Assembly (NCBI GenBank): GCA_045106555.1
Contig: JBGCET010000010.1
Span: forward strand, 21,773 to 85,772
Source of the DNA: Lysobacterales bacterium
GTDB taxonomy: Bacteria; Pseudomonadota; Gammaproteobacteria; Xanthomonadales; SZUA-38
Length of the DNA: 64,000 bases
Direction of reading: 5' to 3'
Shown: piece after piece, positions 8,092 to 33,686 of the stretch
Numbering within the stretch: position 1 is the stretch's first letter
How the letters are laid out: each line of letters opens with the position of its first letter
The notes under the pieces: generated by a model
What the model was told of the DNA's origin: nothing
Database searches by the model: none
The model's input: the letters and a program-made list of their open reading frames with translations, nothing else
Position numbers and translations under genes: made by a program

Positions 8092-8292
8092 GATAAAAAT
8101 GTAAGTTCGGGGATTTTTTATGAAGGCTTTATCTGAAAGGCCCCAATAAACCCTAAGAAACTGCTGTAGTTGTTGGACCTAACGGAAATTGGGTCACAGC
8201 CGGCTCAAATAATCGCCTTTTTTCCCTATTTTTTATTAGATATGAGCGTCACGTTTTCTCGAGGCATTGCGAAGAAAAAAGCTTAGGTGTAA

Positions 8293-9267: not shown

Positions 9268-9362
9268 ACCACGCTGAGTTGAGTGACTTTGGACGGTTGC
9301 ATGTTCGTGTATATAACCCCGCCCGTGGGTTAAACTTCGGTTGCATGTTTCGGAGTAATGCC

Positions 9363-32314: not shown

Positions 32315-32782
32315 TCACACGTCGATCTGCAGCATCTCCTCCGAAGGTGCCTGCACCGGCGCATCGAAGCGGGTGCGGTTCAACACTTCTTCATTCCAGA
32401 TCTCGAATTTCCGCCCCATACCCATGAACGTGACTTTTTTCTCCAACCCCGCGACTTCCCGCAGCGTGACCGGCAACAGCAAACGACTCGAACCATCCGG
32501 CTCCATCGGTGCTGCGCTGCCCACCAAACGGCGTTGCAGCGTGCGGTGCCGCTCGTCAAAAGCATTAAGCGCCATCACCTGATCGCGCATTTCCGCCCAG
32601 ACATCCATGGGGTATAACCACAGGGAGTTGTTATCGTGTGCGTTATAGGTGAGCACCAGCTGGTTGCCACACTCTGTAGCAATCTGTTCCCGGAACCGCG
32701 TTGGGATGGCGATACGTCCCTTTGCGTCCAGGTTGACTGACACTTCACCGTAAAACACGACTGTTTTGCCACTTGTTACCAC
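32315..32782 (-). CDS. mraZ: transcriptional regulator MraZ
   Basis: Two SpoVT/AbrB-like halves with DxxxR motifs (NLDAKGRIAIPTRFRE and EPDGSSRLLLPVTLRE). An alternative GTG start at 32758 gives the canonical short N-terminus. Confidence 0.93.
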   Translation of the reverse strand: MVTSGKTVVFYGEVSVNLDAKGRIAIPTRFREQIATECGNQLVLTYNAHDNNSLWLYPMDVWAEMRDQVMALNAFDERHRTLQRRLVGSAAPMEPDGSSRLLLPVTLREVAGLEKKVTFMGMGRKFEIWNEEVLNRTRFDAPVQAPSEEMLQIDV

Positions 32783-32800
32783 TAATCTCCACTACAGGGC

Positions 32801-32845
32801 AGGTTATGCCCCTCTATGGGGTGTGTCAACCCAACGCAACCCAAA
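32801..32845 (-). promoter_or_regulatory. candidate Pmra sigma70 promoter with MraZ-box direct repeats
   Basis: Minus strand reads TGGGT-tgcgt-TGGGT (32829-32843), overlapping TTGACA (32824-32829), then a 17-nt spacer and TAACCT (32801-32806). MraZ is known to bind TGGGN repeats with 5-nt spacers. Confidence 0.5.
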
Positions 32846-32962
32846 GCCTGCAACGATTCACACAATTGGCCGAAACGGGTCCTCCCGACGCCCTTTCAAC
32901 AGATATTTTCATAATTGGGGATTATTCCCCCCCAAATGATTCGTGTTTTCTGCCAGTAGCCC

Positions 32963-33049
32963 GGTGCGGGCGGTGATTTAGGCCTCAAAAGGAGGTTAAG
33001 CGGACCGCAGGGAGCCATTCCTTTAGAGGCCTAAATCACCGCCCGCACC
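32963..33049. repeat. 87-nt long-stem hairpin element A with a conserved 25-nt loop
   Basis: 24-bp perfect stem 32963-32986 / 33026-33049, one A:A mismatch, then a 6-bp stem AAAGGA/TCCTTT. Loop is GGTTAAGCGGACCGCAGGGAGCCAT (32994-33018). Confidence 0.9.
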
Positions 33050-33130
33050 TCACACCGACGCTCGCCCGTGCTGGGGTCAGCTCACAGCATTGAAGGAGGT
33101 CAAAGCCCAAGAGCGGAGCCGCATGAGGGA

Positions 33131-33217
33131 GAGGCTGCGGTGGCATTAGGTCTTTCGTTGGAGTTAAGCGGACCGCAGGGAGCCATCCAACGAAAGACCT
33201 AATGCCGGCGCAGCCTC
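33131..33217. repeat. 87-nt long-stem hairpin element B with the same 25-nt loop
   Basis: 9-bp stem 33131-33139 / 33209-33217, a 2-nt internal loop, then a 20-bp perfect stem 33142-33161 / 33187-33206. Loop is AGTTAAGCGGACCGCAGGGAGCCAT (33162-33186). Confidence 0.9.
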
Positions 33218-33282: not shown

Positions 33283-33318
33283 AAAAAAGCCCCTGAGACT
33301 TTCGTCCCAGGGGCTTTC
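33283..33318 (-). terminator. rho-independent terminator of rnpB
   Basis: Minus strand reads GAAAGCCCCTGGGAC-gaaa-GTCTCAGGGGCTTTTTTGT. Confidence 0.8.
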
Positions 33319-33345: not shown

Positions 33346-33686
33346 ATAACGAGTCTGTCGATAAGCCGGGTTCTGTCGCGGACAGTCATTCATCTGGGAC
33401 GTCCGTCGCCGAACGCCTCAAGCAACCAACCCGGAAGCAGCGCGGGCCACGCCATAGCTTCCCTATTTGGTCTTGCTCCAGGTGGGGTTTACCCTGCCAT
33501 TGCTGTTGCCAGCAATGCGGTGCGCTCTTACCGCACCATTTCACCCTTACCCGATAAACCGGGCGGTATTTTTTCTGTGGCACTTTCCGTAGGCTCTCGC
33601 CCCCCAGGCGTTACCTGGCACCTTGCCCTGCGGAGCCCGGACTTTCCTCCCGCATTGCTGCGAGCGACTGCCTGACAGGCTCGGCG
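33346..33686 (-). ncRNA. rnpB: RNase P RNA, bacterial type A
   Basis: The minus strand contains universally conserved blocks: GGAGGAAAGTCCGGGCTCC, GGTGCCAGGTAACGCCTGGG, ACGGAAAGTGCCACAGAAA, GGTAAGGGTGAAA, GGTAAACCCCACC and ACAGAACCCGGCTTATCG. 5'/3' P1 pairing is CGAGCCTGTC / GACAGACTCG. Ends are approximate to within about 5 nt. Confidence 0.95.

Follow-up and report, generated by a model that had tools for sequence, protein, structure and literature searches.

Dispersed bacterial palindromes, among them repetitive extragenic palindromic sequences (REPs), REP doublets forming hairpins (REPINs), bacterial interspersed mosaic elements (BIMEs) and miniature inverted-repeat transposable elements (MITEs), are normally defined by their conserved arms. 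The criterion for a REP or REPIN is a conserved imperfect palindrome of 20-40 nt with a 5' GTAG and a variable REPIN loop, and the genes for REP-associated tyrosine transposases (RAYTs) are typically flanked by their own REPs. Here we describe two hairpins, A and B, in the spacer between rnpB and mraZ of a Lysobacterales bacterium (assembly GCA_045106555.1, contig JBGCET010000010.1, positions 21,773 to 85,772), the whole 64,000-nt stretch being referred to as the window. They are members of a previously uncatalogued palindromic repeat family of marine-sediment Gammaproteobacteria with a unit of ~87 bases, and this family inverts the conserved-arm rule, with more than 40 stem types at 96% pairing, a fixed loop and one strand that folds. 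We read A and B as resident copies of a dispersed REP/REPIN-like element working as a single-strand hairpin, probably of single-stranded DNA (ssDNA), in which the loop is a putative protein recognition site. We give this reading a probability of about 0.45, slightly short of even.

The family shares much with REPs and REPINs, which are also short, non-coding intergenic palindromes in tens to hundreds of copies, mostly at gene 3' ends. Further common traits are a hairpin unit of ~90-100 nt with compensated arms, long persistence at orthologous sites, solitary units without a terminal inverted repeat (TIR) or target duplication, and a strand-specific, single-strand logic. However, the REP arm is conserved (20-35 nt, 5' GTAG) and the loop is free, whereas this family has a fixed loop between free arms. 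The GTAG motif is lacking, no RAYT was found near the copies, and these genomes also carry classical GTAG-type REPs, which form a family of their own. A classical REP was therefore rejected, the arms falling into 47 clusters with a weak consensus alone and the loop being the conserved part. The BIMEs of E. coli are similar in that mosaic arm types are joined at a conserved central motif in chimeric combinations, and in that unit pairs alternate in orientation at a fixed spacing. BIME arms are nonetheless conserved palindromes (REPs), whereas the arms of this family are highly diverse and not palindromic alone, and the BIME linker is a double-stranded DNA (dsDNA) site for IHF (L motif, RIP/RIB), while the central motif of this family has no IHF consensus. 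Composite forms of the family resemble MITEs such as Correia/NEMIS, ERIC/IRU and RUP in their crisp TIRs, 6-7-bp target duplications, lengths of 245-450 bp and deletion derivatives. In contrast to MITEs, the window copies and most others have neither TIR nor target duplication, and the hairpin module is common to subfamilies with diverged TIRs and better conserved than those TIRs.

The original prediction, made from the letters of the window, described twin 87-nt hairpins in which differing stems are fully compensated around a constant loop, and this description proved accurate. A and B lie on the same strand, measure 87 nt each and start 168 nt apart. The arms of A are 97% complementary with a single A:A mismatch, and those of B are 94% complementary with one 2-nt internal loop. 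Folding of the plus strand gave -65.4 kcal/mol for A and -63.3 kcal/mol for B vs ~-27 kcal/mol for shuffles (z = -12.0 and -11.1). The 24-mer GTTAAGCGGACCGCAGGGAGCCAT, common to both, has exactly two sites in the window; it appeared in 0 of 100 shuffled windows, and no extra window site was found at up to three mismatches. A covariance model of 43 family members detected only A and B in the window, each scoring ~40-45 bits higher on the plus than on the minus strand, and this gap is a measure of the information in the loop. The two stems are just ~47% alike, yet the loop is identical.

A REP/MITE-like repeat family was among the candidates first put forward, together with a search for the core in other genomes, and this search returned many copies in unrelated contexts, establishing the core as a dispersed, multi-copy repeat. 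All of the material is metagenome-assembled genome (MAG) or metagenome assembly. One genome per GTDB species was scanned with the exact 21-mer TTAAGCGGACCGCAGGGAGCC. The 25 loci detected, many of them at the ends of contigs, come from one unclassified Gammaproteobacteria MAG and three MAGs of Woeseiaceae, two of which carry the 21-mer on 17 and 7 contigs, respectively. A metagenome scan with the 19-mer AAGCGGACCGCAGGGAGCC gave at least 120 stretches. Altogether, the core AAGCGGACCGCAGGGAGCC(A) has 192 copies in 148 collected sequences (826 kb of Woeseiaceae MAGs, sediment metagenomes and the window; loci are cited below by L numbers), 181 of them exact, 9 with one mismatch and 2 with two or three. 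When the initial 204 kb were searched with mismatches allowed, 31 copies proved exact and one differed at a single position, while no site differed at 2-5 positions. Loop invariance is overstated by these counts, since most loci were gathered by an exact core match; the unbiased evidence on the loop comes from L026/L027, L148, L156, L162 and second copies within loci. As in the original prediction, no known family was matched, either in Rfam or in the searchable literature. Rfam scans at gathering thresholds matched RNase P alone in the window and tRNA alone in 15 family loci, and an E-value scan returned only generic miRNA-hairpin models at no more than 33 bits vs thresholds of 51-142. Full-text searches of the searchable literature for the core (either strand) and for Woeseia with palindromic elements returned nothing relevant. 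In plasmid and phage collections neither the twin hairpins nor a MITE end was matched, and no viral contig carried the core.

The family unit of ~87-91 nt runs from 5'-(C)A/GG... (a slash marking the border) through a free arm of 30-33 nt, a 23-nt loop and the complementary arm to ...CC/G(R)-3', and the asymmetric border consensus (C)A/GG...CC/G(R) is found in solitary and embedded copies. The loop follows the formula R-T-W-AAGCGGACCGCAGGGAGCCA over 23 nt and reads ATAAAGCGGACCGCAGGGAGCCA in 111 copies, ATTAAGC... in 31, GTAAAGC... in 16 and GTTAAGC... in 5, the window loops being of the GTTAAGC... type. It is purine-rich and holds an interrupted palindrome, CGGACCG, which lies off-centre; the C before AGGG is dispensable, as class-1 variants show. 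A 20-nt loop sequence is identical across lineages in which RsmI is only ~50% identical. The stems, mostly 30-33 bp long and ~92% Watson-Crick, form 47 clusters at 80% identity. They retain a loose common consensus, G....G...GCGGG....CCTTTGG.GGGA, which marks them as diverged homologs and not as unrelated captured palindromes. Counted over 43 distinct stems (1,289 cells), standard pairs make up 96.0% vs 54.1% in shuffled stems and 38-45% with slid partners. Changes on both sides occur at 29 of 30 pairs in these 43 stems, and the covariation score is 1.056 vs 0.215. A fixed loop on massively covarying stems supports the earlier proposal that the loop is read sequence-specifically, and makes the family a clean natural case of a variable scaffold carrying a loop that is read. 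It also implies a sequence-specific partner in Woeseiaceae and their relatives, which are abundant and poorly studied marine-sediment bacteria.

A second loop class, AAAGCGCAGCG(A/T)AGCGAGCCA or near variants, occurs in L053, L070, L082, L124, L084 (649-732) and L162. It differs from class 1 (AAAGCGGACCGCAGGGAGCCA) at four positions, two of which swap G..C to C..G round the central A and turn CGGACCG into CGCAGCG with the interrupted palindrome kept. This retention counts as one evolutionary event, with an estimated chance probability of ~4%, and is only suggestive. Pairing of the CGGACCG type is impossible inside a single loop. The retention may point to a dimeric protein bound to duplex DNA, or to pairing between loops.

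The strand on which the structure forms can be told from the errors in the stems. With mismatches de-duplicated by stem cluster, the loop-sense strand shows 69 mismatches of G·T type vs 10 of A·C type, and 61 purine·purine vs 14 pyrimidine·pyrimidine. This asymmetry is not compositional, as the arms contain C and G in nearly equal numbers. In 29 of 40 clusters (p = 3e-5), folding favors the loop-sense strand over its complement by 4-5 kcal/mol, and the loop is not the source of this gap because perfect stems differ by just 0.2 kcal/mol between sense and complement. One subfamily (...GGGCGGGATGTTTGTTGCCGGTA) has inherited three G·T pairs and one G·G mismatch across at least 10 loci. Only the loop-sense strand is selected to fold, with a fixed polarity. 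The strand-asymmetric mismatch spectrum is the best evidence for selection on a folded single strand, though it does not separate RNA from ssDNA. The arms are additionally corrected against each other. In L045, L059 and L108 the inner 20 bp are common, whereas several substitutions and an indel set the outer stems apart, with mirror-image changes on both arms and all three stems perfect. Intermediates would be expected from independent compensatory mutation but not from arm-to-arm correction, for which quasipalindrome template switching is the known mechanism. Full compensation is thus partly a DNA-level by-product. Of the early claim that the compensated stems reveal a structure under selection, the selection itself is upheld by the strand-asymmetric mismatches, but the compensation alone is no proof of selection on an RNA since the arms are also DNA-templated.

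The family carries clear signatures of mobility. Within a subfamily, the similarity between solitary units stops at or a few nt from the stem base in most copies, and one stem subfamily occurs at unrelated loci. Paired units are convergent in 21 cases (142-148 nt), divergent in 12 (141-338 nt) and direct in 6; the window pair is direct at 168 nt. The convergent pairs lie inside MITE composites of 395-450 bp with crisp ends, TGTGAAAACTCAGATCT... and ...AAGTCTGAGTTATTACA, and target duplications of 6-7 bp (GCTAAT, TTAAGG, GCTAGC, ATTAAC, CCTGAGA, GCTTACC and CTTACG), and one-hairpin forms of ~245-290 bp are internal deletions. All TIR-bounded composites are arranged TIR> core+ ... core- <TIR, so that the core reads inward, always 108 or 118 nt inside the TIR. 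In a second MITE subfamily (TGTGATGGKCGAGACTCGATC...) the TIRs are diverged and the loop is unchanged. About 36 copies are embedded in TGT...ACA composites, whose ends and CTAG-like targets presumably place them near IS481 in resemblance. A parent insertion sequence (IS) of the MITEs was not found, and TIR pairs 0.8-1.5 kb apart in L036 and L100, considered for this role, were false matches in tRNA/tufA and ordinary genes. In the Woeseiaceae MAGs, units lie inside imperfect palindromes of ~150 nt with the outer motif AAATAAACCCGGCACCTTTTT, which flanks many hairpins in L003-L025 (e.g. L020 ~2790-2815), sometimes inverted on both sides (L006), and is absent from the window. Neither A nor B has a TIR motif nearby or a direct repeat at its borders, and the spacer between them (33050-33130) shows no likeness to family flanks, MITE ends or this outer motif.

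Arms and loops are also exchanged. The chimeras L1-core-R2 and L2-core-R1 occur in different MAGs, L112 holds another, and at one locus downstream of dcd, L063 and L137 have identical flanks and one hairpin with its loop inverted; being assembly-based, the chimeras and the flipped loop need long-read confirmation. A site-specific breakpoint in the loop was considered and rejected, as few partial copies exist and the junctions of those few resemble deletions or duplications at microhomologies. Such a breakpoint is also unneeded because recombination within the ~30 nt common to the copies is enough to give arm chimeras. For the study of palindrome maintenance the family is useful material, as it offers loop flipping, arm chimeras and correction by template switching. 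With regard to gene context, copies lie mostly outside open reading frames (ORFs), favor gene 3' ends and avoid divergent promoter regions. By crude ORF calls the upstream gene is co-oriented in 76 cases vs opposed in 28, and the downstream gene is convergent in 79 vs co-oriented in 32. The same calls give no sense/antisense preference in co-directional contexts (14 vs 17), and there is no GC-skew or replication-strand bias (32 vs 38). This absence of orientation bias argues against an RNA role linked to host mRNA.

Some copies have stayed in place over long periods. Relatives with the rnpB-mraZ region were found via RsmI, without using the core. In L026/L027 (87% RsmI identity) hairpin B is in place and hairpin A is absent. 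Between B and its L026 ortholog, rnpB is 97.4% identical, the flanks 48-63% and the arms 78-81%, with five fully compensated double changes and zero broken pairs; the loop agrees at 21/23 positions and the core at 20/20, and the internal loop of B is paired in L026/L027. In L148 (77% RsmI) a family hairpin with an exact core lies, reversed in orientation, 47 nt past the rnpB terminator; the inner stem is similar to that of A, and the contig ends within the hairpin. The rnpB-mraZ spacer of L150 and L152 (~70% RsmI) has no hairpin. At a second site, the prs-rplY spacer, loci collected by the core carry a full hairpin in L134, L084 and L073/L121 and an arm chimera in L013, and further Prs relatives were fetched without the core. 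Hairpin and core are intact in L156 (96% Prs identity to L134). The hairpin is absent from L157-159 (95%) and L160/161 (91%), where classical GTAG-type REP/REPIN-like sequences stand instead, and has an altered, expanded loop in L162 (89%). Overall, the element is old at some sites. As a rule it is found whole or not at all, and its presence changes from one close relative to another.

What mechanism might account for these observations? The hairpin of the loop-sense strand would be the active form, with ssDNA thought likelier than RNA. The stem would be a mere scaffold. A conserved protein acting in trans would recognize the purine-rich loop with CGGACCG, and the most plausible candidate is an enzyme that binds hairpins strand-specifically, like those that move REPs and IS200/IS605 ends. 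Units would spread to new intergenic sites, mostly at gene 3' ends, and become built into composites, that is pairs and MITEs with TIRs and target duplications. Arms may recombine at the common loop to give chimeras and loops may flip, while pairing would be kept by folding selection on the loop-sense strand along with arm-templated correction through quasipalindrome template switching. Family membership, the anatomy of the unit, the strand asymmetry, the signatures of mobility and the persistence at orthologous sites are direct observations. We infer an ssDNA active strand, a protein reader and the kind of protein from the mobility signatures, the solitary units without TIR or target duplication and the lack of a transcription-linked orientation.

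Several points weigh against this REP/REPIN-like reading, however. Flanking ORFs compared all-vs-all contained no recurrent transposase-like ORF, the recurrent matches being housekeeping orthologs and repeat translations only. A tblastn search with RAYT and IS608 TnpA over ~0.9 Mb of flanks gave no match, a weak test in view of the query sequences used, and no single gene is flanked by an opposed hairpin pair; the genes of the L023 contig, which has a copy at either boundary, are ordinary ones. The MITEs that have TIRs and target duplications are moved by a double-strand mechanism for which the hairpin is not needed, and conservation is higher in the loop than in the TIRs of these carriers. 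A loop that outlasts the TIRs points to a conserved host factor and not to an element-specific transposase. G·U tolerance is just as compatible with an RNA. Ascertainment bias inflates loop invariance, and a second loop class exists. Persistence at orthologous sites (rnpB and prs-rplY) with an intact loop also exceeds what a purely selfish, decaying repeat would lead one to expect, and is explained at least equally well by an RNA or DNA site useful to the host. It is possible, if on the unlikely side, that the hairpin is a functional, loop-read module on which the host or its mobile elements depend. It could be a new class of structured motif, RNA or ssDNA, to which a conserved protein of the Woeseiales binds and which might dimerise through its palindromic loop, or the cis site of a new, loop-recognising REPIN-like system.

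An alternative reading as a structured RNA, in which a loop-sense transcript would form a 30-bp hairpin and present the 23-nt loop to a conserved RNA-binding protein or to another RNA, seems to us doubtful, though it is a serious contender. Such an RNA could be a domesticated repeat that affects the stability or processing of RNA or sequesters protein. Copies with the same loop might pair with one another via CGGACCG, which is self-complementary, and the sense and antisense loops of convergent pairs on one transcript would be fully complementary. The inheritance of G·U-type wobbles on the loop-sense strand only, the very strong covariation and a loop kept in place at orthologous sites all suit an RNA, as do a loop conserved past the carrier-MITE TIRs, suggesting a host factor, and a class-2 loop that keeps the interrupted palindrome a loop-loop dimer would require. 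The CAGGGAG stretch of the loop also has what we take to be a resemblance to the GGA sites of CsrA/RsmA. The copies, however, show no orientation bias relative to flanking genes, and solitary units have no conserved promoter, their similarity stopping at the stem base. In the window, no promoter-like sites are predicted near A or B, whose sense strand is antisense to both neighboring genes. A stem that is ~92% Watson-Crick and carries mirrored indels indicates templating at the DNA level, no Rfam family matches, and an element can survive inversion of its loop at an unchanged locus.

It is less likely again that the hairpin is a host DNA site, such as an ssDNA initiation or primosome-assembly-type signal on the lagging-strand template or a dsDNA site for a dimeric CGGACCG-binding protein, and we regard this as improbable. 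Within MITEs, such a site would help element replication during copy-out transposition, and inward sense hairpins at both MITE ends would fall on the lagging-strand template of a fork entering either end. The ssoA of rolling-circle plasmids, the RSF1010 sites ssiA/ssiB and PriA sites offer a functional analogy. They are long imperfect hairpins in which a short stretch at or close to the loop is conserved, they work only when folded on a single strand of one polarity, and they are paired on opposite strands; signals of the PriA/ssi type support primosome- or primase-dependent synthesis of the complementary strand in one orientation. Unlike this family, they belong to plasmid or phage replicons and are not dozens of chromosomal repeats. 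Strand-specific folding fits ssDNA, and mismatches occur in the order G·T > G·A > G·G, far above those containing C, in agreement with the stability ranking published for DNA mismatches. Dyad symmetry is retained in the class-2 loop. The family loop contains AAGCGG, a hexamer that may correspond to one in early descriptions of PriA (n') sites. On the current view PriA reads a fork-like structure and not a sequence (PMC5778457), which weighs against a host site of this type. Solitary chromosomal copies also lack the replication-strand bias that a priming signal should show, and the palindrome lies off-centre in the loop with its outer pair dispensable. For a dsDNA site, a 23-nt spacer makes cruciform extrusion unlikely.

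The position of A and B beside rnpB and mraZ (Table 1) raises a more local explanation, namely a functionless duplication, chance palindromes or an extra terminator or attenuator for these genes. Two copies do stand side by side in a single spacer, and both lie just past the rnpB terminator. Against a duplication stand 190 further copies at unrelated loci of other genomes, and stems just ~47% alike around an identical loop; as a full explanation, local duplication or chance is refuted. The hairpins are not ordinary terminators either, as had been recognized from the start: the loops are 23-25 nt, no T/U tract lies 3' of A or B on either strand, and the only site resembling a terminator belongs to rnpB. 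The rnpB-mraZ arrangement is unchanged in L150 and L152, which have no hairpins in it, and the conserved stretch upstream of mraZ (~32790-32850), which we take to be the mraZ promoter/operator, is separately conserved and more than 110 nt from A. A local origin or role of any of these kinds is thus highly improbable, and regulation of rnpB or mraZ by A and B is not supported. The hairpins occupy a spacer that tolerates them, with the rnpB terminator on one side and the mraZ promoter on the other, and their location is incidental, as family members adjoin many unrelated genes.

Table 1. Hairpins A and B and neighboring features of the window.
Feature	Position	Strand	Remarks
Hairpin A	32963-33049	+	87-nt complete family unit; covariance model 83.6 bits on +, 43.5 on -
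Hairpin A left arm	32963-32993	+	31 nt; inverted repeat
Hairpin A loop	32994-33018	+	25 nt; GGTTAAGCGGACCGCAGGGAGCCAT; invariant core AAGCGGACCGCAGGGAGCCA at 32998-33017
Hairpin A right arm	33019-33049	+	31 nt
A-B spacer	33050-33130		81 nt
Hairpin B	33131-33217	+	87-nt complete family unit; covariance model 85.5 bits; kept in place in L026/L027
Hairpin B left arm	33131-33162	+	32 nt; inverted repeat
Hairpin B loop	33163-33185	+	23 nt, the family modal length; GTTAAGCGGACCGCAGGGAGCCA; core at 33166-33185
Hairpin B right arm	33186-33217	+	32 nt
rnpB (RNase P RNA)	33346-33683	-	Rfam match, 347 bits
rnpB intrinsic terminator	33285-33318	-	Inverted repeat and terminator prediction; 68 nt from B
mraZ	32315-32782	-	

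Two smaller features of the spacer were observed. TGGGT repeats 10 nt apart (GCTTTGGGTTGCGTTGGGTTG) lie on the minus strand of the window at ~32822-32850, directly upstream of TTGACA; this block, presumably the MraZ operator and Pmra, is identical in L026/L027 and separate from the hairpins. A small inverted repeat, GGGGATTATTCCCC, lies at 32917-32930 between A and the mraZ promoter and is loosely conserved in L026.

Other identities for the hairpins were considered. The sigma-54, IHF, Chi, KOPS, boxA, DnaA-box and CRP consensus sequences, compared by eye, do not fit the loop. Integron attC sites carry R''/R' core sites (RYYYAAC...GTTRRRY) at the stem base and have an integrase nearby; GTTAAGC fits GTTRRRY but sits in the loop, most members read ATAAAGC, and the stem bases are GG...CC. 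A role of the stems as guides was also rejected, as their sequences match nothing else in the window, plasmids or phages.

The covariance model can be used to annotate these genomes, and the element should be borne in mind when they are assembled, as it breaks MAG assemblies and yields fold-back artefacts. Palindromes extending 40-94 bp to the contig end in L024 (~2640-2893), L112 (1-222) and L119 (1-115) are probably assembler fold-backs at a hairpin. At ~7750-7960 in L026, and also in L027, a unit of ~100 nt made of one hairpin-B arm, the first 8 nt of the antisense loop and spacer is repeated twice in tandem before the complete hairpin B, and half-hairpin tandem copies are also found in L035 and L126. 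Three loci, L064, L088 and L135, look unrelated to the family; in L088, from a sloth gut metagenome, the 19-mer core lies at 9305-9345 in another structure, in which CCGCAGGGAGCC pairs with a downstream GGCTCCCTGCGG.

Further repeats share these genomes. A small palindrome, AATAATGGGGACAGTCCCCATTATT, adjoins or lies inside MITE ends in L133 (~8105-8130), L044, L047 and L096 and is another short repeat family. GTAG-type REP/REPIN-like sequences (GTAGGAGCGCCCCATGGGCGCGA...TCGCGGGCATGGCCCGCTCCTAC) occur at ~2455-2505 in L157 and ~2455-2520 in L160, and also in L134 and L030; RAYT-type systems are probably present beside the loop-conserved family. Finally, L150 holds two adjacent palindromes of ~98 nt (1685-1783 and 1791-1888) between the UPF0102 and lpoA genes, with 23-bp arms, 52-53 nt between the arms and no core, which look like a different family of long-hairpin repeats.

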